From an uncultured Alphaproteobacteria bacterium (lineage in GTDB: Bacteria > Pseudomonadota > Alphaproteobacteria > Rickettsiales > UBA998): 64,000 nt of DNA. The stretch is taken from contig CAWDMW010000001.1 in the NCBI GenBank assembly GCA_963803575.1, positions 16,086-80,085 on the forward strand, read 5' to 3'. The notes beneath the pieces are model-generated. The model worked only from the letters and a program-made list of their open reading frames with translations. It was not told where the DNA came from and did not search any database. The translations under genes were made by a program, and so were the position numbers. Of this stretch, positions 3,677 through 40,878 are shown piece by piece (the stretch's first letter is position 1; every line of letters begins with the position of its first letter).

Positions 3677-5557
3677 GTGAAACTGTTTAACCGTGGCATA
3701 ATGGCTTCGCTCCATGGCAACCCTGCCCCATCGGTTGATATGGATCATCTGGTGCAGCGCTACGTGAAAGAGACAAAACAGCATGGGGGTATTGGTCACT
3801 TTATTGTACCATCCACCAATACGCTTGACGCCCAGTATCACCTGATATACCAGCAAGAGCTTCGTTACTCGCCCTCAGATTACCGTTGTTTCGATGCAGT
3901 AATCCATGATCTGGCACATCAACATCTCACGGAATCGTTAGCTAAAGATAACATCGCAATGCTTCGCAATATTATCTTTGGGTATGTCGTTAACCCACCC
4001 GGTAAAAAGACATTACCTACGTCCGAGACGTTACATTATCTGACTCAAACCGCATTGCTTGCAGGGTTGGCTATCAAAACAGAATACGTGTCGTCAGATG
4101 CGCTACATCGCTATGGTGTGGGTGCCGCATTGCTTTATCGTCATATCACCGATACCTTAGCACATACATCACCCTCGCCCGAAAAAACGTGGAAATGGCT
4201 TAGCCCTTCTCGCTCATCTATATGCGTTTTGCCGCTTATCCGTGACACATGCCTAGCACCATACCTGCTTCGCGATGATACGGCTGATGCGGATCATATT
4301 ACCCAGGATTACCACGAAGAGCATGTGGCGCAACGTCAGGAAGCATTTACTCATGCCATGAAACATGCAGAATTGGGCGCATTAGCAGGATTAGCCCATA
4401 GCGAAGAAGAAAAGCCCAAGCATCATTTTAACCGTGTAGAAGATTTGCGTGTGGAGGTGCAGGAAGAGGCGATTGCGATTGCGCGCGACATACTGGACAA
4501 ATTGCGCCTGCAATTTGCTGATATGACGCTGGAAGCCTTGATGGATATGGGTGACATGCCACTGGTGAAACAGCTTCTCACGGGCGTGTCTAAAGTTGCC
4601 AGCACTTTCCGTCAACATCTTGACATTGCACTCAGGCTTGATCCTGATATGGCTGACGATGACGCCGTGCTGGAAGCGAGTATGGCTATTGGCATATTTG
4701 ATTTTCACGGAAAAATGCAGGAATCCGAGCAAGCGCGTATGCAAGCGATGGTTGCCGAACAAACAGGGAATATATCACTTGCCGGCCAGCTTCATCAACA
4801 AGCAAAACAATTACATGAAGAAGCTGTTGCTTTGCCCGGTGCATGGAAACAAACCGCTGATCGTTCTATCACCAGTTTGCTAGATAGCATCGAGAAAGGT
4901 ATGGATCGTATTGTTAGCCGTGTGCAGGAAATGCAGGGTGGTCTTGGAGCGGTCAGTGAACGTGATCTCGGTCAGGCGGATGCTCAGGATATGCAGCAGG
5001 AACAGCCACAAGAGCATCTGCCGCAGTCGCAACAACAATCTGCTAATAAAAGCGATAAAAAACATCAGCAGCTTTATCAGGCCGATCAAATTGCAGACAT
5101 GATTCGCGCAGCTCGTATGAAAAAGTCGCAGATGCGTGATAAATTACAAGATCAGCGCGAAGCTAAAGCCGCATCTGGTCAGGACAAAAAAGGCGACCCA
5201 TCCGGATCAGGTGGGAGTCGTCAGAAGCAGGCGGGTAAATCGTCTTCCACTATTTCACCTGAAGCCTCTGAAACGGCCAAAGCAGCCAAGGCACTGGGGG
5301 CTAATCTGCTGGATGCAGCTACATTAAAAGCGTTTCAATCAAGTATGGATGTTGGTGGCATGGAAATGAGTGAGGAGTTGATGCCCAATTCTCCACAGCG
5401 CACGATCAATTCCATTAAAAACAACAAACAAGGCAATATTTCCAAAACAGCTGCGGTACGATCAGACGTTCTGCGCGACCAACAGCAAGTGGAAGAACAA
5501 ACAGATCAGCAGCAAGCACTAAGTGCAAAGAAGAAAAACACGCAATTTAGCCGTTAG
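3677..5557 (+). CDS. Large hypothetical protein with a Q/K/S/D-rich low-complexity C-terminal third
   Basis: 626-aa ORF starting 2 nt after the DUF2610 stop (GTG 3677; alternative ATG 3701). I recognised no motif. The C-terminal roughly 200 aa are Q/K/S-rich and probably disordered. Confidence 0.6.
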   Translation: MKLFNRGIMASLHGNPAPSVDMDHLVQRYVKETKQHGGIGHFIVPSTNTLDAQYHLIYQQELRYSPSDYRCFDAVIHDLAHQHLTESLAKDNIAMLRNIIFGYVVNPPGKKTLPTSETLHYLTQTALLAGLAIKTEYVSSDALHRYGVGAALLYRHITDTLAHTSPSPEKTWKWLSPSRSSICVLPLIRDTCLAPYLLRDDTADADHITQDYHEEHVAQRQEAFTHAMKHAELGALAGLAHSEEEKPKHHFNRVEDLRVEVQEEAIAIARDILDKLRLQFADMTLEALMDMGDMPLVKQLLTGVSKVASTFRQHLDIALRLDPDMADDDAVLEASMAIGIFDFHGKMQESEQARMQAMVAEQTGNISLAGQLHQQAKQLHEEAVALPGAWKQTADRSITSLLDSIEKGMDRIVSRVQEMQGGLGAVSERDLGQADAQDMQQEQPQEHLPQSQQQSANKSDKKHQQLYQADQIADMIRAARMKKSQMRDKLQDQREAKAASGQDKKGDPSGSGGSRQKQAGKSSSTISPEASETAKAAKALGANLLDAATLKAFQSSMDVGGMEMSEELMPNSPQRTINSIKNNKQGNISKTAAVRSDVLRDQQQVEEQTDQQQALSAKKKNTQFSR

Positions 5558-26140: not shown

Positions 26141-26416
26141 ATGCCCGACCAAACTGTTGTTGAACAGCTACACGAACTGCTACATAAAGCGTTTGATCCA
26201 TCTTTGCTGGTTATTGAGAATCAGTCAGCGCAACATGCTGGTCATATGGAAGCAGGTGACGGAGGTGACACTCACTTTCACCTCATTATAGCCAGCAAAA
26301 AACTCGATGCTAAGTCTCGTATTATGCAGCATCGTACCATATTTGAGGCGGTATCCAGCCTGTTAGATGCACCTATTCATGCATTGTCGATTGAAGTCAA
26401 ACCATCGTCTAATTAG
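26141..26416 (+). CDS. bolA: BolA-family protein
   Basis: LVIENQSAQHAGH....THFHLIIASKKLDAKSRIMQHRTIFEAV...IHALSIE matches the BolA fold signature. The track starts at the GTG at 26129; I preferred the ATG at 26141. Confidence 0.85.
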   Translation: MPDQTVVEQLHELLHKAFDPSLLVIENQSAQHAGHMEAGDGGDTHFHLIIASKKLDAKSRIMQHRTIFEAVSSLLDAPIHALSIEVKPSSN

Positions 26417-27272
26417 ATAGTTGAGGGGCTTCAATCACAGGGATAGAGAGATCGTCGGCATCAGGTGTGTTTTCTTCATTTGGTGTTGACGAAATAACAT
26501 TTCCATCCTTATCAAGCTCAAGGTCAATAAGCGCACCCTGCTCGTCCAATGGAGGCGGCGGTGGAGGTGGTGGAAGAATATCTTCGGGCTTTCCTTCATA
26601 GGTATGCATATATTCACTAAGAAATATATGGTTTGCCTGCAATGCTAGTTGCCACCTTCCTGTATTGTTATAATATTGCGGAATACTACTGGGTTCTCTA
26701 ATCATACGATGCTTAATCGTTTCTGCATGAGGTGGTAATGCATCATCCGGTTCACGCTTTGTTAATAATGCTCTGGACAATCGAGTATTTTGTGGATACC
26801 AAAGTAATGTTACATAATCAGGGTGTATATTTTTTACATATAATTCGTTTTCTTCATTATTATTCGCGTTTGTGATAGTAATGCCATTAATACGAATAAA
26901 CCACTGTGCAGGATTATGATAGATAATAGATGATAGATAAAATGATGGATAAATCAATGGAGTAAGATCATCTTCGACCTCTTCATTTTCGTCTTCAGCA
27001 AGTATATTCTCTAATTGTAGACTATTAACGTTTGTTCCATTTTGCATAGTTTCTTCTACACGTCTAATAATATCAATGTATCTGTCAATTTCTGACGGGC
27101 TAAATAAGATAGACGGGCGTATTTCTTCATAGGACGGTATAAATTTCGTTACCGGCTCTTTCACAAGCTTATTGTCCTGAGCAAACGCTGCATTCAGCAA
27201 TATACATATAGTAGAGATAAAGATAGCAATATTAGTAAGGAGATGCATTAACACTTTCCTTTTTTTGATCAA
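26409..27272 (-). CDS. Secreted protein, putative PilP/GspC-like component with a poly-proline linker
   Basis: Signal peptide ..ILLNAAFA|Q. The segment YLSSIIYHNPAQWFIRINGITIT...YVKNIHPDYVTLLW resembles the PilP / GspC-HR beta-domain pattern. It also has a PPPPPPPP run and an acidic tail. It is the last gene of the pilus-like operon (alternative start 27248). Confidence 0.45.
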   Translation of the reverse strand: MIKKRKVLMHLLTNIAIFISTICILLNAAFAQDNKLVKEPVTKFIPSYEEIRPSILFSPSEIDRYIDIIRRVEETMQNGTNVNSLQLENILAEDENEEVEDDLTPLIYPSFYLSSIIYHNPAQWFIRINGITITNANNNEENELYVKNIHPDYVTLLWYPQNTRLSRALLTKREPDDALPPHAETIKHRMIREPSSIPQYYNNTGRWQLALQANHIFLSEYMHTYEGKPEDILPPPPPPPPLDEQGALIDLELDKDGNVISSTPNEENTPDADDLSIPVIEAPQLSN

Positions 27273-27885
27273 TCCCCATCCATAAAAACGTGATATTTGC
27301 TTCTACGACTTCTGGCAATGACCCACGGCTTACTTCTATAATAACTTCTCTTGAAAAGGGTCGCTTACGACTAATTTTTACACTAGTCTCTTGTATTACT
27401 CCAGGAAATATTTTTTTAATGTTATCGATAAATGCATAAACATGCAAGTCAGTTAATGCAGAAAAAATTACTTCTACTTCGCGAAAGACAGGCTTAAAAC
27501 CAGTATATTTTTCAGAGCTTTGATTAACTAGTTCCTGTTTTGATCCGATTTTCATGCGTAGGTTATTCAACCTGTGTCGCTTGATTAACCTTCCTAATAT
27601 AGCCGCACCATGATCTGCTACCAAGCTATAATTACCATCTTCAAAACTTCTATTAATTTCCATGTATGCCGAAAAAGAGGACTCATATATTTCAAATTTT
27701 TGTTCTAACTGTGCCAGTCTATTACGTTGTTGACGCATAGACATCTCTAAAGTGGTTTTTTCTTTTTCTTTCTCTTCACTATTACTATATATATAATACA
27801 AAACCCCACTTAAAAAGAATATTACGGCAAAGACTATCATAATAACTTTAAACATTTTTTTCTTTAGACGATTTTCTTTTTTCAT
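27232..27885 (-). CDS. Bitopic inner-membrane protein, putative PilO/GspM/MshJ-like
   Basis: Short basic N-terminus, one TM (FKVIMIVFAVIFFLSGVLYYIY), a coiled coil (LEMSMRQQRNRLAQLEQKFEIYE) and a globular periplasmic domain of about 130 aa. This is the topology and size of PilO/GspM. Confidence 0.45.
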   Translation of the reverse strand: MKKENRLKKKMFKVIMIVFAVIFFLSGVLYYIYSNSEEKEKEKTTLEMSMRQQRNRLAQLEQKFEIYESSFSAYMEINRSFEDGNYSLVADHGAAILGRLIKRHRLNNLRMKIGSKQELVNQSSEKYTGFKPVFREVEVIFSALTDLHVYAFIDNIKKIFPGVIQETSVKISRKRPFSREVIIEVSRGSLPEVVEANITFLWMGIDQKKESVNASPY

Positions 27886-27893
27886 AAAAACAC

Positions 27894-29615
27894 CTAAGGA
27901 CGCTGTACGTCTTTCTGATTATGAGACTCTATGGTTATGCTAACATCAATAGTTTTGTCTTTCTCACTTTTGTTTTCGGTATAGTTTTCAAAATTTATCT
28001 CTAATTCATCCTTCTCTGAATCAATTCCAGATAATTGATTAGCTTTTAAAGTATAGCCAGTAAAAGATTCCTGCATATTTTGATAGATTTTTTTCCACCT
28101 CTCTAAAGCATCCTGATTAGCCTGCTTATTTCCGTTAACAGTAACGTTTACAATAGATTTTGATATAATGTTATCTGAGAGTATTATAGAATGATTGATA
28201 AGATCATTTTTCACAATTGGTGTAGAAGCATTATTATCTTTCGTAATACCCCATTCAAATGATGAAACTATTAGTTCTTCATTAACAAATTCAGTAACTT
28301 TATCAATTATTACTGTATATTGCGGCATGGTTTTATAAATCAGATCATTAATTTTTATCAGTGAGTCCACAATAAAAGGGTCAACTTCAAAATCAACTGC
28401 TTTTTCTTCAAAGTATTGCACTCTACGAGCTAATTGTGATTTTTCCTGATTAAGATCTACAAGCATATTCTTACTAATTAGCAACTGGTAACTGTATAAA
28501 CCAGCAGCACCAATCAAGAAAATAGATAATATCAATCCAGCTACTTTTGCTGCTTTAATACCTTTGTAATATTTTTCTATTTTTGCAATAGCATTAGGTA
28601 TTAATTTTAGCTCTGGTTTTTTAAAAATCATGAACGCAGCAGATATAAAAATATCTCCATAACGATCACCAGATAACAGTGAATGTTGTATATCTATTAA
28701 TTCTGCTGCTTCGTAAGGAGTTAGCACACGATAAACGTTAGCATTAAATATTTTTGGATCTATTTCATTCCTGATATCTTCTCCTAAAACCATCATAATA
28801 TTCAAATGCGATGTATCCGAAAAAGACAGTCTTTTCAGGTATTCAATAGTATTTTTTACTTCTTGCTCAATATTTCCAGCGACAACATTTGATTTTTCCT
28901 GATGAGAAGATTGTGCCATACGTGTAAAAACTAACTGTTCATTCTTCAAAACAACTTGTCTAAATCCTCCAGTTTTATGATGTATTACCAAAATATCCCA
29001 TTTAGTGATGTCGCTAGAGCTTTCCTTATTTGCCGATTTATCCTTTTTCTTTTTAGCAAAGAATGTCTTTTTACTGGCTTCCGGAGTAGCGTATAAAGAT
29101 TGATTCATACGCTTAATAATTTTTTGTGACTCTATAGGCGCTAAATACACTCCAGTAAAACGGTTAGGTAAATCATAAATAAGTTCACACCAATTTTTCA
29201 AAAAAGCACTATAGGACAAAGAAACAAGTAAAAAATTCCAGTCTTTTCTTCCTTTTTTATCACGACCAAGTGAAATAGCACCTTTTAAATCATCGGGGGC
29301 AAAATCACGTGCCAGACGCCGTTGAATGATTTTATTTACACCTAGTGGCGTAACAGGTGGCAATGAATGTCGTACATAAGACTGATCCATTAAATCAACC
29401 AACATATGGATAGGGGCCTGAGGATGTGTAGTCAGCAACTCTTTAAACGTATCAGTAGAACGAGAGTCATATTCAGCAGAATAAAGTCTTTTAATAACAA
29501 TATTATTCTCAAAGTAACTTAAGATAGCTCCTTCATCTCCAATAAAGAAAACAAATGCTTTTTTTAAGTTTCTTTTTGATGGTGCTTCATCGAGTCTTTT
29601 TCGCTGCTTTTTCAT
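27894..29615 (-). CDS. Putative PilM-PilN fusion (GspL/MshI-like) alignment protein
   Basis: 573 aa: about 350 aa cytoplasmic (beta-strand starts FVFFIGDEGAIL and WDILVIHHKTGGFRQVVL, as in actin-like PilM/GspL), then KPELKLIPNAI (INLLP-like), one TM at aa ~356-380 and a periplasmic domain of about 190 aa. The size is close to PilM (~350 aa) plus PilN (~200 aa). Confidence 0.5.
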   Translation of the reverse strand: MKKQRKRLDEAPSKRNLKKAFVFFIGDEGAILSYFENNIVIKRLYSAEYDSRSTDTFKELLTTHPQAPIHMLVDLMDQSYVRHSLPPVTPLGVNKIIQRRLARDFAPDDLKGAISLGRDKKGRKDWNFLLVSLSYSAFLKNWCELIYDLPNRFTGVYLAPIESQKIIKRMNQSLYATPEASKKTFFAKKKKDKSANKESSSDITKWDILVIHHKTGGFRQVVLKNEQLVFTRMAQSSHQEKSNVVAGNIEQEVKNTIEYLKRLSFSDTSHLNIMMVLGEDIRNEIDPKIFNANVYRVLTPYEAAELIDIQHSLLSGDRYGDIFISAAFMIFKKPELKLIPNAIAKIEKYYKGIKAAKVAGLILSIFLIGAAGLYSYQLLISKNMLVDLNQEKSQLARRVQYFEEKAVDFEVDPFIVDSLIKINDLIYKTMPQYTVIIDKVTEFVNEELIVSSFEWGITKDNNASTPIVKNDLINHSIILSDNIISKSIVNVTVNGNKQANQDALERWKKIYQNMQESFTGYTLKANQLSGIDSEKDELEINFENYTENKSEKDKTIDVSITIESHNQKDVQRP

Positions 29616-29617
29616 AA

Positions 29618-30820
29618 TTAGAAGTCGATTTTACTAAAAGAATCATAAAGAGGTCCAAACACAGCAGCAATTACCCAGAAGATAATGGCACCCATAACCA
29701 CTGTCATAATAGGCTGTATCAAACTAACCATGCCGTCCACAGCATCATTTACTTCACGCTTGTAAAAATAATTAATGTTTTCTAGTGCTTCACTAAGGTT
29801 TCCGCTTTCTTCTCCAATCTTGAACATACGTATAACCAAGTTTGGAAACCTACTCGACATACGTACAGATTCCGTTAGTCTGTTACCTTCCAAAACACTA
29901 CGATGGACAAGCTCAATGGTCTCTTTGAGTACACGGTTTTTAACGACATCCCGACCAGCAGTTAATGAGTCCAGTATATCAATACCACTATTAAACATGA
30001 CAGCAAAAAAATGCGTAAATCTTGCCATGTTAATTTTATTGACGACATTTCCTATCACAGGTATTTTAAGTATCATTGCATCAAATTTATACGCAAAACC
30101 ATACGAAATACTGTATAATGTTCCTACGATAACTGCCGTAATGACAGGGAGAGAGAAAACAATATACCAGTATTCCCCAAAAAACTCGGATGTTACAATG
30201 AGTGCTTCGGTATGTGCCGGTATTTCAAACCCTTGCGATATAATAAAATCAACTAATTGTGGGACAACAAATAGCATTAATATACTAATGACACCCGTCA
30301 ACACAACACCAAGGACTGCAGGGTACGTAATCGCCTTACGAACTTTACGACGTAGCTCTGAGCTCCATTTCATATGCTCGCTGAGATTCAGGAAAGATTC
30401 TTGCAAATTTCCTGTTTTTTCACCAGCGGCTATCAGCCCCACAAAAACTTCATTAAACACATTTGGATGCTTAGCAAGCGATTCAGAGAATGTCGTACCT
30501 GTTTTGATTGATTCATAAACGCTGGCTAGAATATCATGGAGCTTTGCAGAATCTGTGGCATCTCTTGCATCCGCCAATGCTTCATGCAACGGCACCCCTG
30601 CCCTGTCAAGCTGTTCCATATGAAGACAGAACACAATCATATCCTTCATCTTCACTTTAGACATGAACGAGGAACGCCGTGTTTTAGCTTCGCGGCAATC
30701 AATCAAGTCAAGCCCAAGCTCCTTTAGGCGACTTTCCAAGTCAAGCTCATTTCCGGCCATTAATTCGCCTTTCATCGTGCGACCGTTTTCGTTTACTGCG
30801 CGATAATTGAATGTATACAT
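29618..30820 (-). CDS. Type II secretion / type IV pilus platform protein (GspF/PilC family)
   Basis: 400 aa with two T2SSF repeats, each with a cytoplasmic helical bundle plus TM helices (..FSESLAKHPNVFNEVFVGLIAAGEKTGNL.. and ..LTESVRMSSRFPNLVIRMFKIGEESGNL..). Confidence 0.9.
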   Translation of the reverse strand: MYTFNYRAVNENGRTMKGELMAGNELDLESRLKELGLDLIDCREAKTRRSSFMSKVKMKDMIVFCLHMEQLDRAGVPLHEALADARDATDSAKLHDILASVYESIKTGTTFSESLAKHPNVFNEVFVGLIAAGEKTGNLQESFLNLSEHMKWSSELRRKVRKAITYPAVLGVVLTGVISILMLFVVPQLVDFIISQGFEIPAHTEALIVTSEFFGEYWYIVFSLPVITAVIVGTLYSISYGFAYKFDAMILKIPVIGNVVNKINMARFTHFFAVMFNSGIDILDSLTAGRDVVKNRVLKETIELVHRSVLEGNRLTESVRMSSRFPNLVIRMFKIGEESGNLSEALENINYFYKREVNDAVDGMVSLIQPIMTVVMGAIIFWVIAAVFGPLYDSFSKIDF

Positions 30821-30830
30821 AATGTTTTTC

Positions 30831-32900
30831 CTATAGCCTGTCAGTCACATCCACGCTGCCGACCAGCTCTTTAACATCAATTTCCCCTTGCAGCACTTTG
30901 TCTATTCCATCATCAATCATGGGAATAAATCCCTTGCTCAGAAGATACTCTGTCATCTGATTGCGCGTAGCACCCACCGTAATTAATTCGTCCATACCGC
31001 GATCAACTGGCATGATCTCTATCATCGCCGTGCGCCCTTTATATCCTTTCTGACGGCACGCTGGACATCCAACCGCCTCATATATTTCTGGTGGATCATC
31101 CACAGGCTTTCCAAGCACTTTGCATTCTTGTGGAGTGGCTAATCTTGGACGTTTACACTCAACACATAATTTACGTGCTAAACGCTGAGCCACACCACAT
31201 ATCAGCGATCCGGCCAACATATGAGATGGAACGCCAATGTCATTTAATCTGGGGATAATTCCAAGCGCATCATTCGTGTGTAGAGTGGAGAATACCTGAT
31301 GCCCTGTTAGCGCAGCACGCACAGCATTCAGCGCCGTATCTTCATCGCGTACCTCACCAATAAAGATGATATCAGGATCCTGGCGCATCAGAGATTTGAT
31401 TCCGGTTGAAAATCCGATCACTCCTTCTTTTACATTGGTTTGACGTATCAATGGCAATTCATATTCCACCGGGTCTTCTAATGTCATAATATTGACATCA
31501 ATCGAATTAATGTAATTGAGTATGGAATAAAGTGTGGTTGTTTTTCCGCTTCCTGTTGGCCCCGTAACGATGATAATGCCTTCCGGACGTTTCAATAACT
31601 TTTTGAGCAAGGTCATATTATGCTCACTGAATCCTAAAAACTCTAACGGAAGAATAGATTTAGACTTATCCAACAGTCGCATAACAATGTTTTCACCAAA
31701 TACGGTGGGTTGGGTAGCGACACGAAAATCAACTTCCCGTCCAAGCGCATTAAACGTAATACGTCCATCCTGAGGCATTCGTGTCTCGGCGATGTTCATA
31801 CCTGACATGATTTTGATACGCACCGCGATTGCCGACCAATAATCACGGTGAAAGGTACGCACTTGCATTAACTGCCCATCTACCCTGTAACGTAGCCGCA
31901 AAAACGTTCCTTCAGGTTCAAAATGTAAATCTGATGCTCCCTGCTTCACGGCATCAATCAATAAGGCATTGACAAGCCGGACTGTAGGGCTAACGTAACC
32001 ATCTTCACTGCCATCTAATATACTCGCATTATTGTCACGGATACCCGTCTCAATTTCTTTCAAAATACCATCAACCGATATTTCGTAATCATAATATCGG
32101 TTGATTAGCTCCTGTATCTCGCTATCAGTACAATAAAGTTGTTTTACGTTAACGCCTTTGGGCATATGGCGGCGTAGGGCATCTGTGGCCAGCACATCAT
32201 AAACATCAAGCATGGCTACTTTGAGTTCATTTCTCTCAAGCGAGATGGGAACGATTTTATGCCGTACCGCTACCTCTTTGGGAATCATTTTGATGATAAC
32301 CGGGTCAAGCATCATTTTCTTTGCATCAAACCGCTCTGTACCTGTTGATTCTGCCAGCACTTCGGCAAGTGCGCTTTCTGTGATAAAGCCGAAATCCACC
32401 AAAATATGCCCAAGCATATCTTTTGTGCGTTTTTGTTCTTGCAGTGCCACATCCAACTGATCGCGAGAAATCAGACCCATAGTAATAAGCTGTTCACCCA
32501 AACGCATTTTTGGAGCGTTTTGTGTCTGGCTTTTGCCTGCATTAACCGGTAGCAAGCTTTCATGCTCCCCTGTCAGCAATCCTGAATGTAGTGATGCCGT
32601 GATATAGTCCGGTAAGGGCTGCAAGGCCTCGGAATTTGGTTCAGGCATCTCCGCTTCTACGGTCGTTGTTTCAGGATCAGGTAACACGTAACGACTATGG
32701 TCGCCTGATGCTTCTGTAGGTGGTTCTACGTTCTCAACCGGTGTCTCTATCGCATCGTTAGTGGATTGCTCCGCTTCAAATGCCACGCGCTGCTGGCGTA
32801 AAAAATTATCATAATCAGACATAACCTGTTTGTCTTCAGATGCTACAGTTGCAGCAAGCTCGTCATTGTCTGATGTATGATGATAGTCGTGCGGGTGCAT
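30831..32900 (-). CDS. GspE/PilB/MshE-family secretion ATPase with an MshEN-type N-domain and an acidic N-terminal extension
   Basis: Walker A GPTGSGKTT, Asp/His boxes and Walker B (IIFIGEVRD), tetracysteine CVEC..CPAC, and a T2SE_Nter region with a tandem RLGxxLIxxGLI....L...L..Q motif. The first ~131 aa are acidic and probably disordered. Confidence 0.92.
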   Translation of the reverse strand: MHPHDYHHTSDNDELAATVASEDKQVMSDYDNFLRQQRVAFEAEQSTNDAIETPVENVEPPTEASGDHSRYVLPDPETTTVEAEMPEPNSEALQPLPDYITASLHSGLLTGEHESLLPVNAGKSQTQNAPKMRLGEQLITMGLISRDQLDVALQEQKRTKDMLGHILVDFGFITESALAEVLAESTGTERFDAKKMMLDPVIIKMIPKEVAVRHKIVPISLERNELKVAMLDVYDVLATDALRRHMPKGVNVKQLYCTDSEIQELINRYYDYEISVDGILKEIETGIRDNNASILDGSEDGYVSPTVRLVNALLIDAVKQGASDLHFEPEGTFLRLRYRVDGQLMQVRTFHRDYWSAIAVRIKIMSGMNIAETRMPQDGRITFNALGREVDFRVATQPTVFGENIVMRLLDKSKSILPLEFLGFSEHNMTLLKKLLKRPEGIIIVTGPTGSGKTTTLYSILNYINSIDVNIMTLEDPVEYELPLIRQTNVKEGVIGFSTGIKSLMRQDPDIIFIGEVRDEDTALNAVRAALTGHQVFSTLHTNDALGIIPRLNDIGVPSHMLAGSLICGVAQRLARKLCVECKRPRLATPQECKVLGKPVDDPPEIYEAVGCPACRQKGYKGRTAMIEIMPVDRGMDELITVGATRNQMTEYLLSKGFIPMIDDGIDKVLQGEIDVKELVGSVDVTDRL

Positions 32901-36679: not shown

Positions 36680-37069
36680 TTACGCATCTTCATGGTCAGA
36701 GAAAGGTTCTTCTTCCTCTTGTAAGTCAGCCTGTTCAAGCGAATCCATGTTCATCTTCGGCTTTGAAATAGGGGTGTTGTTTTTCTTGGCAGACGCTTTG
36801 TTGCGCACTAATTTGCCTTGCTTATCATCCCAGGAATATTGATAAACCACGGTTTTGACACCCGTCATGACAATATCACCGTCGGCTAATTGCAATACAT
36901 CAAAGCCTTTTTGCAGCGCATCGTTAATTAGCGACGAAGACTGACGCAGATAGGTCGGGTTAGACATTGTCTCTGTCATAGCTTCTTCGATGATAGTACT
37001 GTTTCCACTTGAAAGACTCTTGCTAGACAAGCTCAGCTTTTTAATCAAGTTGTTATTGTAGTTACTCAT
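36680..37069 (-). CDS. Hypothetical protein (129 aa) with an acidic C-terminus
   Basis: Isolated ORF with its own terminator and a 210-bp upstream region. No motif recognised. Confidence 0.5.
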   Translation of the reverse strand: MSNYNNNLIKKLSLSSKSLSSGNSTIIEEAMTETMSNPTYLRQSSSLINDALQKGFDVLQLADGDIVMTGVKTVVYQYSWDDKQGKLVRNKASAKKNNTPISKPKMNMDSLEQADLQEEEEPFSDHEDA

Positions 37070-37279: not shown

Positions 37280-38395
37280 TTATATATTGCTACCATACTT
37301 CAACCGGCTTTCCATAAAACCCAATTCAGTTACGGGATTCATGGCCAGCACCTGATGACGAAACTGGTTGTAACTCTCATAAATACGTTTGTTAATGTCC
37401 CCTTCTGTGGATACGGCATATGTCACGTCATTTGCCAAATTAAATACGCGTTCCAGTATATCCTCAGGATACTTACCAATTGTCAAGCCTTGAATATGTT
37501 GCAATTTTGCAAATGCACTCACATTATGAGCAAAATACTCTGAAGTCATCAGCATCGTTTCGGTTGCACAAGCCGCCTTCACAATACGTTTCAGGTCGGG
37601 TTCCAGCCCATCATACGCCGGGCGATGTATCATTAATTCCAGTGCCGCGCCGCCTTCATGAAAGCCGGGGCCGTAATAATAATTGGCAATACGATGAAAA
37701 CCAAATGCCATATCATTCCACGGGCCTACCCACTCCAGCGCGTCAATCACGCCTTGCTGAAGCGAAGTGTAGAGTTCACCGCCGGGAATGGTTTGTGGGT
37801 TAGCCCCTAGCTTAGCCATGATTTCTCCAGCTAATCCCGGCATACGAATCTTTAGACCTTTGAGGTCATCAACTGAGTGTAGAGGCTTATTATACCATCC
37901 ACCCATTTGTGTACCCGTGTTACCTGCAGGGAATGAGACAAGGCCGAACTGGCCGTAAAGTTCATGCATTAACTTCAATCCACCCCCATAATACATCCAT
38001 GCCTGATGTTCCTGCGCGGTCAGTCCACCCGGAACAGCACAGAAGAAAGCAAACGCACGATTTTTCGGTAGCCAGTAATAAGGGGCGGCGTGCGCCATTT
38101 CGATGGAACCATTGGCGCAGGCATCAAACACACCAAGTGCCGGCACCAGCTCCCCTGCCCCATAAGCAGCAACCTGCAAACGGCCTCCAGACATCACGGT
38201 AATGCGTTCTGCCAGCCGTGTGGCACCGGTGCCAAGGCCGGGCAATAATTTTGGCCAGGTCATCGCCATGCGCCATTTTTTCACAGGCGAAATGATAGCT
38301 GGCGCAACGGGTTTAGCCAGTGCTGCGTGACTTACCACTGATCCAGCCAGTAAAGCGCCACCTGTTTGCAGAAACGTACGACGTGAATGTTTCAT
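37280..38395 (-). CDS. DctP-type (TRAP family-7) periplasmic solute-binding protein with a twin-arginine signal
   Basis: MKHSRRTFLQTGGALLAGSVVSHAALA is a Tat signal. ..YYWLPKNRAFAFF..PGGL, GGWYNKPL..DLKGLKIRMPG and GVIDALEWVGPWND are typical of Tat-dependent DctP-like SBPs. Confidence 0.85.
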   Translation of the reverse strand: MKHSRRTFLQTGGALLAGSVVSHAALAKPVAPAIISPVKKWRMAMTWPKLLPGLGTGATRLAERITVMSGGRLQVAAYGAGELVPALGVFDACANGSIEMAHAAPYYWLPKNRAFAFFCAVPGGLTAQEHQAWMYYGGGLKLMHELYGQFGLVSFPAGNTGTQMGGWYNKPLHSVDDLKGLKIRMPGLAGEIMAKLGANPQTIPGGELYTSLQQGVIDALEWVGPWNDMAFGFHRIANYYYGPGFHEGGAALELMIHRPAYDGLEPDLKRIVKAACATETMLMTSEYFAHNVSAFAKLQHIQGLTIGKYPEDILERVFNLANDVTYAVSTEGDINKRIYESYNQFRHQVLAMNPVTELGFMESRLKYGSNI

Positions 38396-38399
38396 ACCG

Positions 38400-40292
38400 C
38401 TAAAAAGATGCCAACGTTAACATAGGAATACCATCTCCATACACGATGAACGCATATAACGTATAGACTACCCACACAACAATCGTTAACGGTATACCGG
38501 CACGAAGATAGTCACTGAAACTATAGCAGCCCGGCCCCATGACCAGCAAATTTGTTTGATAACCTATTGGGGACGCAAAAGAACAACAATTCGTGGCAAA
38601 TAACACAGCGAATACGAACATTTCTACAGGCACATTCAGGGTGACAGCTGTACTAACCGCGATGGGAGTAAAAATTAATGCTGCGGCATTATTGCTTAGG
38701 ACATTGGTCATCACAGCCATCAACCCAAACATGGCAGACATCACCCATACAGGATGTACCCCGCTCATTGCACCAATTAATGTTTCCGCTAAAAACACCG
38801 CGCCGCCTGTAACCTGCAACGCGCTGGCCATAGCCATACCCGCCGTTACTAACAAAATGATCTGGGTATCAATAGCACGCAATGCCTGCCTCGCCGTTAA
38901 ACATCCGGCAAAAATAGCCGCTGTTGCACCGAATAAGGCACCAATATAGACCGGCCAGACATCAAACGCTGCCAACCCAATGACAGTGGCAAAAATAAGG
39001 TTTGCACGACGTGCCAGTTTACGCGAAGGCAGTTCACGTCGTGACCATTCCATCAACATCATATCTTTATTATTACGGATCGCTTCAATATGTTCTCTGG
39101 TACCCATCACCATTAACACATCACCAGCAGCCAGAGAACTTTCTGTCATACGCGTATTAATCATACGGGAACGCCGCTGCAACCCAATGACGGTACAATG
39201 GTGGTGATGATAAAAACCAATCTGCTCAACTGTTTGTCCAATCATCTTGGAAGCCGGAGCAATCAATACTTCTACCATCGTCAGGCTATCTGCCTCCGTC
39301 TGTGCATGGGATGATAAATCTGCATTCAACGCACCTATTTTACCCAATGATCGTTTATCTTCATCTGATACAAGCTTGACTAATGACTCTTTTGTGACGG
39401 TAACAACCAATACATCAAAGGGTTTAACGGCCAAATTATCATCGAAGGGCGGTAGATACGCATGTTCGCGTCGTTGTAACATCCTTACGGAATATTTTTC
39501 TTCTCCAAATAAATTGGGATCCGTCAGGCTTTTTCCAACTAATGCTGATTTAACGGGTATCTCAAGTTGCACCACAAATTCTTTATTATCGTCTCCCATC
39601 ACGTCGCTTGCAAGTGGCGCATGGCTGGGTAAGAAGCGCGGCAAAATCAACAGCACATAGGCAAATCCTATGGCTGCAATGATGCTACCTGGCACCACAA
39701 AGTCAAACATGCCCAGTGGCGCGCGACCAAGTGATTCCAATGCACCGGAAATAATCAGGTTAGTCGAGGAACCGATCAGCACCGTTGTTCCCCCCAAAAT
39801 AGAAACATACGACAAAGGAATCATGACCTTTGATGCGGATAAGTTAATTTTCTTGGCGATAGCCAGCATGATGGGGATGAAAATCACTACGGCAGGCGTA
39901 TTATTCATAAAGGCGCTAATTACCATTACCACCAGCAATGATGCGGCAATAGCCAACCAGTAAAAAGAACCAAACACCCGAAAAATCCACTGTGTGACAA
40001 TTTCCAGTGAACCGGTATTCACAATTGCCTGACCAAGCACAAGCAAGGCAATTACCGCAATGAGCGCCGGATTCGCTAGCCCTTCCAAAAACACTGACGG
40101 ATTGATAGCAGTCTGATCGCTTCCTGTGTACGGAAGTGCATAAAACAGCCCAATGACGGCAAGCAGGATACTGATAGAGACGGCCTCAAGCGAGTATTTA
40201 TCTGAGGCAAATGCTATTACAGCCAGCAGGATAATTCCGAGTACCGCCCATAGATGGAATGTTGCAGGCAACGTTAATGCCAGTGATTCCAT
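38400..40292 (-). CDS. SLC13/DASS-superfamily (CitMHS-like) permease with two central TrkA-C (RCK_C) domains
   Basis: 630 aa. Two polytopic halves flank two soluble repeats of about 70 aa each (..VVQLEIPVKSALVGKSLTD.. and ..MVEVLIAPASKMIGQTVEQIG..GDVLMVMG). The stop lies 4 nt before the SBP start. Confidence 0.85.
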   Translation of the reverse strand: MESLALTLPATFHLWAVLGIILLAVIAFASDKYSLEAVSISILLAVIGLFYALPYTGSDQTAINPSVFLEGLANPALIAVIALLVLGQAIVNTGSLEIVTQWIFRVFGSFYWLAIAASLLVVMVISAFMNNTPAVVIFIPIMLAIAKKINLSASKVMIPLSYVSILGGTTVLIGSSTNLIISGALESLGRAPLGMFDFVVPGSIIAAIGFAYVLLILPRFLPSHAPLASDVMGDDNKEFVVQLEIPVKSALVGKSLTDPNLFGEEKYSVRMLQRREHAYLPPFDDNLAVKPFDVLVVTVTKESLVKLVSDEDKRSLGKIGALNADLSSHAQTEADSLTMVEVLIAPASKMIGQTVEQIGFYHHHHCTVIGLQRRSRMINTRMTESSLAAGDVLMVMGTREHIEAIRNNKDMMLMEWSRRELPSRKLARRANLIFATVIGLAAFDVWPVYIGALFGATAAIFAGCLTARQALRAIDTQIILLVTAGMAMASALQVTGGAVFLAETLIGAMSGVHPVWVMSAMFGLMAVMTNVLSNNAAALIFTPIAVSTAVTLNVPVEMFVFAVLFATNCCSFASPIGYQTNLLVMGPGCYSFSDYLRAGIPLTIVVWVVYTLYAFIVYGDGIPMLTLASF

Positions 40293-40454
40293 AGATATAT
40301 TACCTTCATATGTTATTACTCTGATTCAAGCTGACTCTATATCCTTTCTACCATATAAAGTCACTGATGAAAACGCAATGGAAGGAGCCGGCTAAACCTG
40401 TATTACGAATGGTAGAATTTAATAATTGGTTAGCTATCACTCTATTTGCTTGCA

Positions 40455-40490
40455 ATAGTTATTAAAGATAGTTATTAAAGATAGTTATGT
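40455..40490 (+). repeat. 13-bp tandem direct repeat (2.7 copies) in a divergent promoter region
   Basis: atagttattaaag occurs at 40455-40467 and 40468-40480, followed by the partial copy atagttatgt. Confidence 0.8.
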
Positions 40491-40521
40491 TGGCTACGTT
40501 TTTTAGTTATGGATAAATAGC

Positions 40522-40719
40522 ATGATGTTTGCTGTATACCACGACCCTTCCGGGAAACTTGAGGCTTGTGCGCTTGCAAGAATGAGTTCGGGATCCATGG
40601 AAATTTACCTGGCCAACTTTGGATGCGGATTAGGCGCAAAATCTGGTCAGTTTTACAGAATCGAGGCTTCATCGCCTGAAAATGCTTTATCAAAATACCG
40701 AAAACAAACCGGTAAATAG
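40522..40719 (+). CDS. Small hypothetical protein (65 aa)
   Basis: The ORF is followed within 6 nt by a perfect 11-bp-stem terminator, which argues for a real transcript. There is no clear SD sequence and no recognised motif. Confidence 0.4.
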   Translation: MMFAVYHDPSGKLEACALARMSSGSMEIYLANFGCGLGAKSGQFYRIEASSPENALSKYRKQTGK

Positions 40720-40724
40720 CACTT

Positions 40725-40772
40725 CTGCCCTTTATGAACCTACCCTTAGGCTTATAAAGGGCAGCTCTTTTT
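40725..40772 (+). terminator. Strong rho-independent terminator
   Basis: ctgccctttat (40725-40735) pairs perfectly with ataaagggcag (40754-40764) and is followed by CTCTTTTT. Confidence 0.8.
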
Positions 40773-40878
40773 CAATAGTGATACTGCAAACTAAGAATTT
40801 ACTTTTGTATGATATGACTTTATATACAGCATAACTATGACACAGGTTATCTCTCTTAGAACTGCACAGCAAGGCGTT

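Follow-up and report, generated by a model that had tools for sequence, protein, structure and literature searches.

Before the TAXI-GltS system of Bordetella pertussis (BP0402/BP0403) was proposed, mainly from genome context, the known secondary transporters depending on a solute-binding protein (SBP) were represented by the TRAP and TTT families alone (Jaques et al. 2025, PMC12344293). The authors of that study also stated that SBPs seem to be associated with elevator-type carriers (PMC12344293). The locus analyzed here is located on a 64-kb stretch of DNA (referred to as the window) and encodes a permease and, 4 nt downstream on the minus strand, a DctP-type SBP. As in TAXI-GltS, a TRAP-family SBP gene directly follows, and is probably translationally coupled to, the gene of a predicted non-TRAP elevator-type permease, this linkage recurs in different genomes, and TRAP membrane genes are missing from the vicinity. 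The components differ, however: the TAXI-GltS permease is a Na+-symporter-like GltS protein (ESS family) and its TAXI-type SBP carries an extra N-terminal domain, whereas the window encodes a CitMHS-type permease with a predicted DASS fold and two TrkA_C domains, together with a TakP-like SBP of ordinary length. Furthermore, natural fusion proteins exist for TAXI-GltS, whereas none was found for the window pair among the best 150 of 2,045 permease representatives; the longest of these 150, P0369 (787 aa), was considered as a fusion candidate and rejected, as it contains four TrkA_C domains. Unlike in TAXI-GltS, relatives of the window pair keep a full dctPQM set beside the permease.

Among the TRAP systems, TakPQM of Rhodobacter sphaeroides (2hzk/2hzl) shares with the window SBP six ligand and cation residues, a Tat-type signal, and a C-terminal helix, whereas the window SBP features no adjoining TakQ or TakM and carries fixed substitutions near its pocket (F to G123, Y to G242, and P to G248). 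DASS/SLC13 proteins (VcINDY, NaS1, NaDC1/3, and NaCT), known as homodimeric elevator transporters, represent the best structural matches of the permease, which differs from the solved DASS proteins by a low identity (~12%) and by its two inserted TrkA_C domains. We know of no DASS protein that uses an SBP. In architecture and length, the permease corresponds to CitMHS permeases with central TrkA_C domains, such as YfbS of E. coli; no characterised member of this type was identified in the literature. Within this type, only the alphaproteobacterial orthologous group of the window was observed to be linked to dctP, and general SBP use is not suggested. TTT (TctABC), the other established SBP-dependent secondary transporter family, features an unrelated SBP (TctC/Bug) and a two-subunit membrane part, and genes of the TctABC type are absent from the window locus. 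The literature searched contained no account in which a DctP-type SBP is combined with a DASS/CitMHS permease, which agrees with the preliminary description, where such a combination was regarded as undescribed. By analogy to TAXI-GltS, the permease-SBP pair represents a credible, previously undescribed candidate for an SBP-dependent transporter.

Composition of the locus and its two proteins

Both open reading frames, their lengths, strand, and spacing were found as previously claimed, and the features of the locus are summarized in Table 1. The region upstream of the permease gene is presumed to contain the promoter of the two-gene operon; a consensus scan of this region revealed no convincing sigma-70 site. 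Promoter-like and terminator-like sites were also looked for at the permease-SBP junction, and none is present there.

Table 1. Features of the permease-SBP locus (positions refer to the window).
Feature	Position	Strand	Basis and remarks
Permease gene, 630 aa	38400..40292	-	ORF; CitMHS / DASS-fold, two central TrkA_C (RCK_C) domains
SBP gene, 371 aa	37280..38395	-	ORF; DctP-family, TakP-type (alpha-keto-acid + cation) periplasmic binding protein
N-terminal membrane half of permease, residues ~1-222	39627..40292	-	AF2 helical elements 2-220; CitMHS match begins at residue 26
Two tandem TrkA_C (RCK_C) domains, residues ~236-310 and ~335-420	39033..39587	-	Pfam and AF2
C-terminal membrane half of permease, residues ~424-630	38403..39023	-	Na_sulph_symp 478-614; helices 424-628
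Junction: permease stop TAG, cggt, SBP start ATG; 4 nt	38396..38399	-	Direct sequence reading
Twin-arginine-type signal peptide, residues ~1-27, SRRTFLQ ... ALA/K (slash: cleavage site)	38315..38395	-	Motif in translation; cleavage site inferred
SBP C-terminal helices, residues 333-368	37292..37399	-	AF2 helices 333-355 and 357-368, pLDDT 90-98
Intergenic region, permease to divergent guanylate kinase gene	40293..40836	.	Position only; presumed operon promoter region

The domain assignments of the preliminary description (CitMHS, two TrkA_C, and DctP) were confirmed by Pfam scores above the cut-offs. For the permease, CitMHS (PF03600) scored 202.5 bits (cut-off 31.9), TrkA_C matched in two stretches (67.3 bits, the best of them at residues 339-408), and Na_sulph_symp reached 40.8 bits (cut-off 27) in the C-terminal half alone, while DctM remained under its cut-off (21.1 vs. 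23.8 bits). This C-terminal membrane half is the part closest to DASS/SLC13 transporters, sequence matches to VcINDY/SLC13 being located at residues 436-614. The AF2 model of the permease (pLDDT 81.9) contains two beta-rich modules (238-309 and 337-420), and its best Foldseek matches were NaS1, VcINDY, NaDC3, Pho90, and ArsB with TMt values of 0.64-0.74. All of the top 40 matches were DASS/SLC13, Pho90, ArsB, or DiT proteins (TMt ≤0.74), whereas TRAP QM was matched weakly. As judged from this model, the permease is predicted to adopt the dimeric elevator DASS fold, a fold class common to TRAP DctM, and the proposed common fold within the ion-transporter superfamily is thus upheld by the matches to NaS1, VcINDY, and NaDC3. 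The designation as an SLC13/DASS permease holds for the CitMHS domain and the fold; the curated DASS model TIGR00785 (TCDB 2.A.47) scored 90.1 bits, below its cut-off of 198.6, and the protein is therefore classified as a CitMHS-type member of the ion-transporter superfamily and not as a bona fide DASS-family member. Its family is large, comprising 2,045 representatives at E≤1e-30, mostly of ~600 aa.

The SBP was assigned to DctP (PF03480) with 170.7 bits (cut-off 23.4) and to NCBIfam TRAP_S1 with 56.1 bits (cut-off 50), TIGR00787 staying under its cut-off (63.9 vs. 175 bits). Sequence matches in the PDB comprised 4pet, 5cm6, 7ug8, and 2hzk (E 1e-77 to 1e-85), and the same four structures were retrieved by Foldseek with TM values of 0.91-0.96 using the AF2 model (pLDDT 90.5; residues 1-33 with low pLDDT). 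The twin-arginine motif claimed for this protein is present, and its residues R5 and R6 do not vary among 52 relatives; however, Pfam TAT_signal remained sub-threshold (16.6 vs. 22.7 bits), so export specifically by Tat is inferred. Residues Y107, Q163, R184, E221, W222, and E247 align to Y100, Q156, R177, E214, W215, and E240 of TakP, and all six of these keto-acid and cation ligands occur without exception (100%) in the 118 clade members compared. The SBP is accordingly predicted from its residues to be TakP-like with a site for a 2-oxo acid and a cation. The clade of the window SBP features approximately six fixed substitutions and a few clade-only conserved charged residues, and the substitutions near the pocket suggest that its preferred ligand may differ. 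The SBP was also inspected for indels specific to the clade and for an additional domain as marks of adaptation to a new partner, and none were found.

In TakP, a 40-residue helix is swapped within a dimer having its two binding clefts on opposite faces (PMC1839085). The C-terminal helices of the window SBP are homologous to this helix, the alignment to TakP 2hzk reaching residue 353 of 365. Since the TakP clefts lie on opposite faces, it is not evident how such a dimer would dock neatly, in a 2:2 manner, on a permease dimer, and the argument that a dimeric SBP fits a dimeric permease was downgraded for this reason.

Conservation and ancestry of the gene pair

Reference genomes and metagenomes were scanned with an alignment of SBP sequences; the matches listed were mostly relatives of 40-50% identity from other clades, L002 being the only locus of the window's own clade among them, and close-clade loci were gathered one protein at a time. 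Twelve loci of the SBP's own clade (54-75% identity) were sampled, and in every one of them the permease gene is located upstream on the same strand. Because this order recurs in every sampled clade locus, the adjacency is far above chance. The permease and SBP genes are separated by -4 to +27 nt in ten of these loci and by 186 nt in another, and in the remaining one, two glycosyltransferase genes are inserted between them. The homologous junctions measured amounted to -4, -4, -4, +9, +9, +9, +9/27, +13, and +16 nt, the overlaps of -4 nt occurring in L082, L085, and L167. In addition, for at least 36 of 119 SBP relatives, the contig has exactly the same length as that of one of the top 120 permease relatives, pointing to a location on a common contig, and three sampled SBPs that appeared unmatched in this contig comparison are also paired with a permease. 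The gene-neighbourhood survey therefore clearly contradicts the first refuting condition named in the preliminary description, a lack of conserved co-occurrence of the two genes. All pairings were seen within Alphaproteobacteria and not across phyla.

The flanks of the paired loci are unrelated (gmk, bioB-bioA, motAB, sdhCDAB, ankyrin/DUF2671, and AstE), the permease-SBP junction alone being preserved. No SBP reading frame is disrupted in the 12 loci or in 118 clustered relatives. Together with the invariant arginine pair of the signal and the fully conserved ligand residues, this indicates that the SBP is under continued constraint. These observations bear on the idea that the SBP gene is a decaying, non-functional leftover of dctQM loss whose adjacency to the permease is meaningless. 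It would fit a Rickettsiales-like lineage, as suggested by the DUF2671 neighbour and the nearest named matches, in which gene loss is common, and the permease reading frame is split in one relative (L084); this split is probably a sequencing error, since the contig coverage is 2.58x. With ligand residues and signal motif unchanged down to ~50% identity, such a remnant is hardly conceivable, and the conservation pattern effectively refutes it.

In the nearest outgroups (Maricaulis, Henriciella, and Sneathiella), the co-directional order permease-bpt-dctP-dctQ-dctM was found, and QM-bearing loci with a permease orthologue comprise L060 (Maricaulis), L080 (Henriciella), L055, L109, L120, L128, and L173 (Sneathiella). 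The permease measures ~604-630 aa, compared to 610-616 aa in the QM-bearing loci, and carries no extra domain. The SBPs encoded beside a permease form one monophyletic group in 200 of 200 bootstraps; in 191 of 200, this group nests together with another one holding QM-bearing L088 as well as L091 and L097, which exhibit the QM-less order perm-bpt-dctP-dctP. As the outgroups carry the permease gene beside dctPQM, the linkage existed before dctQM disappeared from the neighbourhood, and linkage alone therefore does not show a substitution of DctQM; it could also reflect co-regulation or inherited synteny. Hence, the earlier wording that the permease occurs instead of DctQM oversimplifies the situation: the sampled loci of the clade itself contain no adjacent dctQM, but in the outgroups the permease orthologue resides beside complete dctPQM.

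Possible membrane partners of the binding protein

The absence of DctQ and DctM from the window was corroborated: neither these genes nor bpt were detected in the 64 kb by tblastn or, among the six-frame ORFs, by family-specific profile HMMs, which recovered their positive controls. Across 262,624 bases, representing the window and 14 permease-linked QM-less loci, no TakQ- or TakM-type gene was found at E≤1, all six positive controls of the profile HMM search scoring between 84 and 729 bits. Where dctM is linked in the TakP-like family, it is always located downstream of the SBP gene, at a median of 630 nt. Among the scan matches listed, however, 25 out of 65 fully flanked loci of the wider TakP-like family (38%) possess no membrane partner within 7 kb. 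Unlinked dctQM genes elsewhere are consequently a realistic possibility, and the lack of adjacent dctQM was rejected as a stand-alone argument for a new partner. When DctM from the closest relative with QM genes was used as a query, the 120 matches listed were all at least 71% identical to it and none agreed with an SBP contig in length; covering such close homologues alone, this comparison carries no weight for or against an unlinked DctM.

Accordingly, an ordinary TRAP system has to be considered, in which the SBP serves a DctQM unit encoded elsewhere and the permease transports a related substrate on its own and without an SBP, e.g., as a lower-affinity or regulated route, kept beside dctP by co-regulation and by a gene order inherited from perm-bpt-dctPQM. 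We regard this explanation as possible, albeit rather unlikely. It would agree with the ancestral-type cluster, in which the permease occurs together with full dctPQM, with the frequent unlinked arrangements mentioned above, with the size of the permease family, whose representatives exhibit no SBP-related features, and with the missing fusions; furthermore, the conserved MotB-permease synteny implies slow rearrangement in the region. On the other hand, relocation of dctQM with the SBP remaining fixed to another permease (QM kept in none of the 12 loci) is less parsimonious than deletion, the junction survives down to ~54% identity while its surroundings are reshuffled, and no TakQM was detected in the 262 kb searched.

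Two further candidates for a membrane partner were discarded. The DUF2671 protein, considered as a hidden DctQ substitute, is hydrophilic, contains no predicted membrane segments, and is missing from most paired loci. In L168, L169, and L171, a TAXI-type fused QM is encoded two genes downstream; it has its own TAXI SBP and does not occur in the window.

Gammaproteobacterial orphan TakP-like SBPs adjoin UvrD, GGDEF-EAL proteins, and hybrid sensor kinases, the latter two hinting at recruitment of the family for signalling. In line with this, the SBP might not deliver a substrate, but act as a co-expressed metabolite buffer or as a periplasmic sensor or regulator signalling to a membrane protein, be it the permease or a different one, and the regulatory TrkA_C domains of the permease would suit such a role. 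It appears improbable, because no conserved sensor gene resides beside the pair in the window or in the paired loci, conservation of the ligand site does not differ from that in SBPs engaged in transport, and a gene that is tightly coupled in translation to a transporter gene classically encodes a partner in transport.

Proposed transport system and its implications

Conserved pairing without nearby TRAP membrane genes points, albeit short of proof, to a binding-protein-dependent transporter of a new kind. That the two-gene operon encodes such a secondary transporter of new composition is, in our opinion, an evenly balanced proposition. More specifically, and tentatively, a TakP-like SBP would hand a carboxylate complexed with a cation to an elevator permease having a CitMHS/DASS fold and RCK_C domains, a system that may have evolved via DctQM loss from an ancestral operon with two translocators. 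The source would be the older alphaproteobacterial permease-bpt-dctP-dctQ-dctM cluster, from which bpt and dctQM were presumably lost in the clade of the window, leaving the permease and SBP genes directly adjacent or overlapping. After export to the periplasm, putatively by the Tat pathway, the SBP is predicted to bind a 2-oxo or 2-hydroxy carboxylate and a cation (Na+ or Ca2+) in its TakP-type site. It may be coupled, physically or functionally, to the permease and would pass the ligand to this elevator-type protein and not to a DctQM unit, uptake being the presumed direction of transport. The two TrkA_C domains, presumably cytoplasmic, may modulate permease activity. The missing fusions, the lack of indels or domain changes in either protein, and the presence of the permease beside dctPQM in the outgroups speak against SBP-dependent transport.

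If correct, the pairing of a DctP-type SBP with a DASS-fold permease would extend the theme of SBPs and elevator-type carriers to the fold of the medically important SLC13 family, and SBP dependence could be gained, or moved between translocators, inside one operon. Provided that the system originated by DctQM loss, one SBP may already serve two membrane translocators in the operons of Maricaulis, Sneathiella, and Hyphomonadaceae, and the series perm-bpt-dctPQM, perm-bpt-dctP-dctP, and perm-dctP would offer a natural succession for studying SBP docking on an elevator transporter. A gene pair that is widespread among uncultured alphaproteobacteria, some of them Rickettsiales-like, would also receive a function, which is probably the scavenging of 2-oxo or 2-hydroxy acids with high affinity. 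Should QM be encoded elsewhere, the finding would shrink to an unusual operon organisation.

Several minor observations concern the neighbourhood and naming of the two genes. A DUF2671 gene is located downstream of the SBP gene in the window and likewise in L082 and L083, and the adjacency of MotB and permease genes is conserved as well. Permeases of the CitMHS/TrkA_C type are named 'SLC13 family permease' at NCBI and 'di/tricarboxylate transporter' at JGI.

Gene pair and predicted products

In the window, a minus-strand permease gene is followed by a gene for a DctP-family (TakP-type) binding protein (SBP), and the preliminary description of both as adjacent ORFs, 4 nt apart, was found to be exact with regard to the ORFs, their spacing and the domain assignments. 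The absence of the TRAP membrane subunits DctQ and DctM (QM) from the 64-kb window was likewise upheld, since none was detected by tblastn or by profile HMMs for which sequences of the window SBP's family (54 DctM, 56 DctQ) had been used. A consensus scan revealed neither promoter-like nor terminator-like sites between the two genes. Downstream of the SBP gene, a small hydrophilic protein of the family DUF2671 is encoded, which is known from Rickettsiales and appears not to be membrane-bound; it also occurs near the pair in three related loci, but not in most relatives. The DNA stems from an uncultured alphaproteobacterium, and several close relatives carry the label 'Rickettsiales bacterium'.

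Coordinates of the features in the window and in related loci (L-numbers)
Feature	Location	Strand	Remarks
Permease gene	window 38400-40292	minus	ORF, 630 aa
SBP gene	window 37280-38395	minus	ORF, 371 aa; adjoins permease gene
Junction, permease stop / SBP start		minus	4-nt gap, TAG-cggt-ATG; direct sequence
DUF2671 gene	window 36680-37069	minus	210 nt 3' of SBP gene, same strand
DUF2671 near pair	L082 9337-9711; L083 1484-1858; L172 3460-3795		
Pilus/secretion-type stretch	window 26409-32900	minus	ATPase, T2SSF, then three ORFs
T2SS/T4P-type ATPase with MshEN	window 30831-32900	minus	
T2SSF platform protein	window 29618-30820	minus	
ORF, 626 aa	window 3677-5557	plus	no Pfam match at E<=0.001
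Split permease orthologue	L084 3051-4917		536-aa and 95-aa ORFs
Pair directly 3' of bioB-bioA	L084 552-4917; L166 3837-9110; L167 3727-9089		same strand as bioB-bioA
Six-gene block	L168 9142-13797; L169 9156-13877; L171 9195-13951		two different SBP types combined
CoA-transferase cluster	L097 3056-9068 (also L091)		co-directional; gaps 1-27 nt
Gammaproteobacterial SBP loci	L003 2718-9077; also L005, L006, L008, L010, L012, others		no membrane partner within 8 kb
bpt-dctP loci	L004, L055, L060, L065, L073, L074, L080, L088, L109, L111, L120, L128, L163, L164, L173		

The permease matched the Pfam families CitMHS (202.5 bits), TrkA_C in two stretches and, in its C-terminal half, Na_sulph_symp (40.8 bits), and similarity to DctM remained below threshold (21.1 vs 23.8 bits). 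Its structural model (pLDDT 81.9) consists of two helical membrane halves with two beta-rich TrkA_C modules between them, and was matched best by NaS1, VcINDY, NaDC3, INDY, Pho90 and ArsB (TMt 0.64-0.74), the TRAP proteins SiaQM and IseQM following at E about 1e-4 only. The earlier characterization as CitMHS/SLC13-like with two central TrkA-C domains therefore stands as far as Pfam domains and DASS fold are concerned, but membership in the DASS family proper does not, because the curated model TIGR00785 was not reached (90 vs 198.6 bits). The protein is most aptly placed in the ion-transporter superfamily, as a CitMHS-type member whose fold is that of DASS proteins. Its family is large: at E<=1e-30 it comprises 2,045 representatives, of which almost all measure about 590-630 aa; a distant relative of 787 aa (P0369) features four instead of two TrkA_C domains between the membrane halves.

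The SBP, with the N-terminus MKHSRRTFLQ, matched Pfam DctP with 170.7 bits, and the solved structures closest to it were those of Rhodobacter sphaeroides TakP (2hzk/2hzl) and of three keto-acid binders (7ug8, 4pet, 5cm6), with E-values of 1e-77 to 1e-85. In TakP, sodium-pyruvate is held by Tyr100, Gln156, Arg177, Glu214, Trp215 and Glu240 (PMC1839085), which align to Y107, Q163, R184, E221, W222 and E247 of the window SBP in a direct profile alignment. Within the clade of the window SBP (118 members), these six residues are conserved to 100%, and among 76 QM-linked relatives to 97-100%. Furthermore, the AlphaFold2 model of the SBP (pLDDT 90.5) superimposes on TakP and the keto-acid-binder structures with TM 0.91-0.96 and contains the helices at the C-terminus which the two subunits of dimeric TakP exchange. 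Because of the conserved ligand residues and the TakP-like model fold, a 2-oxo or 2-hydroxy carboxylate together with a cation is predicted as the ligand class. A few clade-specific substitutions located beside the pocket, namely F to G123, Y to G242 and P to G248, suggest a specificity different from that of TakP. CitM and CitH, the founding CitMHS members, carry metal-citrate complexes, which may be regarded as a chemical coincidence with the cation-carboxylate complex of TakP-type SBPs.

Conservation and origin of the linkage

In a gene-neighbourhood survey, as proposed in the preliminary description, the pairing proved to be conserved within the clade of the window SBP. The sample comprised contigs encoding individual SBP relatives (54-75% identity) and one reference-genome match, and in 12 out of 12 loci the SBP gene was preceded by an orthologous, co-directional permease gene (the window locus/L001, L002, L082, L084, L085 and L166-L172). 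Junctions measured -4, -4, -4, +4, +9, +9, +9, +9 to +27, +13 and +16 nt, that of L172 measured 186 nt, and in L084 two glycosyltransferase genes are inserted between the permease and SBP genes. The flanking genes are unrelated between loci, with gmk/valS in the window, bioB-bioA in L084, L166 and L167, motAB in L168 and L169, sdhCDAB in L171 and ankyrin/DUF2671 in L172. Among the assemblies and contigs bearing the pair are GCA_028279475.1, GCA_964588995.1 and GCA_024236395.1, the window's own contig of 536 kb, and the scaffolds of L166 (577 kb) and L167 (535 kb). At least 36 out of 119 SBP relatives share a contig with a permease relative from among the 120 best, a count resting on exactly equal 'longest contig' sizes and representing a lower bound, because three sampled 'unmatched' SBPs also proved to be paired with the permease, as did another one, P0069. 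No TakQ/TakM-type gene (the membrane subunits of TakP-type systems) was found at E<=1 in 262,624 bases comprising the window and 14 permease-linked QM-less loci; the six control loci of this search scored between 84 and 729 bits.

The permease orthologue of L084 is split into two ORFs, which may be due to a sequencing error rather than to a pseudogene, as the contig name indicates 2.58x coverage. In the bioB-bioA loci, bioF/bioD/bioC/bioH-like genes lie divergently upstream; this linkage could possibly reflect uptake of a biotin precursor (pimelate-like or a keto-acid intermediate) or mere synteny. The subclade of L168, L169 and L171 features a conserved block in which the pair is followed by genes for MarR, a TAXI-type SBP, a fused TAXI QM with DUF3394 and a universal stress protein.

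When the sample was widened to 160 loci, the permease orthologue was also detected beside SBPs that are accompanied by membrane subunits of their own. The co-directional order permease-bpt-dctP-dctQ-dctM, with gaps of <=71 nt and with bpt encoding an Arg/Leu-tRNA-protein transferase, is seen in Maricaulis salignorans (L060), and the same order was found in Henriciella (L080), L055, L109, L120, L128 and Sneathiella limimaris (L173). Cultured relatives with the ancestral-type operon include Sneathiella limimaris, Maricaulis salignorans and Henriciella barbarensis. A third form, CoA-transferase-permease-bpt-dctP-dctP, lacks QM (L091, L097). In this second QM-less form, a family III CoA-transferase gene precedes one permease linked to two tandem TakP-like SBPs; no DctQM was found within 8 kb of the cluster, after which a convergent MFS transporter follows. 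In many alphaproteobacteria, bpt (ATE_N/ATE_C, an N-end-rule aminoacyl-tRNA-protein transferase) lies immediately 5' of a TakP-like dctP, often with a spacing of only tens of bases; this association between an N-end-rule enzyme and a TRAP transporter has no apparent functional reason.

By neighbour joining, the QM-less SBPs adjacent to the permease were monophyletic (200/200 bootstraps) and formed a clade with the group of QM-bearing L088 and QM-less L091/L097 in 191/200 bootstraps. The grouping of L088, L091 and L097 itself reached only 107/200, and L091/L097 may or may not have lost QM independently. Since this whole assemblage nests within alphaproteobacterial bpt-dctPQM loci, and since the permease stands beside complete dctPQM in relatives, the simplest history is an old permease-bpt-dctPQM cluster, with a single loss of bpt and dctQM at the root of the clade to which the window belongs. 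The permease thus did not arrive 'instead of' DctQM, as the preliminary description had put it, but was already present beside dctPQM.

Possible partnership of binding protein and permease

The absence of adjacent QM genes is not diagnostic alone, because it is common in the TakP-like family. Among 65 loci of the wider family with >=7 kb on both sides, 35 contained a DctM match, the TakM-type DctM always being located downstream of the SBP (median 630 nt), 10 contained the permease, and 25 contained neither. It is therefore possible, although less likely than a partnership with the permease, that a dctQM pair elsewhere in the genomes serves the SBP and that the permease is a co-regulated neighbour; this is the main rival explanation. 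The neighbours of gammaproteobacterial orphan SBPs are UvrD, GGDEF-EAL proteins and hybrid sensor kinases, so that some members of the family may serve signalling instead of transport; for the window SBP, a sensory or regulatory role is considered unlikely. The gammaproteobacterial setting is itself conserved, with UvrD and often PAS-GGDEF-EAL proteins or hybrid histidine kinases.

Any explanation has to account for an SBP that kept its signal peptide and exact ligand site after loss of the adjacent dctQM and divergence to about 50% identity, and for a junction with the permease gene that shrank to an overlap over the same period and persisted while the genes around it were completely reshuffled. 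A decaying remnant is contradicted by this conservation and is highly improbable. For the SBP now working with the permease, we see a roughly even chance. As supposed earlier, such a partnership is mechanistically reasonable, because the permease model shows the elevator fold common to DctM. The case is built on the same logic and kind of evidence as that for TAXI-GltS, the SBP-dependent permease system proposed for Bordetella pertussis. Counting against coupling, no natural SBP-permease fusion was present among the 150 best of the 2,045 permease representatives, and no evident structural adaptation was seen in either protein. Furthermore, the two clefts of the TakP dimer face opposite sides (PMC1839085), which weakens a 'dimer on dimer' docking picture.

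According to the TAXI-GltS paper (PMC12344293), TRAP and TTT had until then been the only known secondary transporters that depend on an SBP, and SBPs associating with elevator-type carriers are an emerging theme. In full-text literature searches, no account was found of a DctP-type SBP working with a permease of the DASS, SLC13 or CitMHS type, in line with the preliminary description, to which no such coupling was known. The pair is a candidate for one more elevator transporter that would depend on an SBP and combine its parts in a new way; comparative genomics supports this well, the function itself being putative.

Other features of the window

On the plus strand, the window contains a 626-aa ORF (Table). 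The minus-strand ATPase and T2SSF genes are followed by three ORFs, two of which (573 and 287 aa) have no Pfam match, the third (217 aa) showing only a far sub-threshold similarity to DUF6377. This stretch has the lowest GC content of the window (33-37% vs about 45%) and may represent a module for a pilus or for secretion that was acquired horizontally and includes novel accessory proteins.
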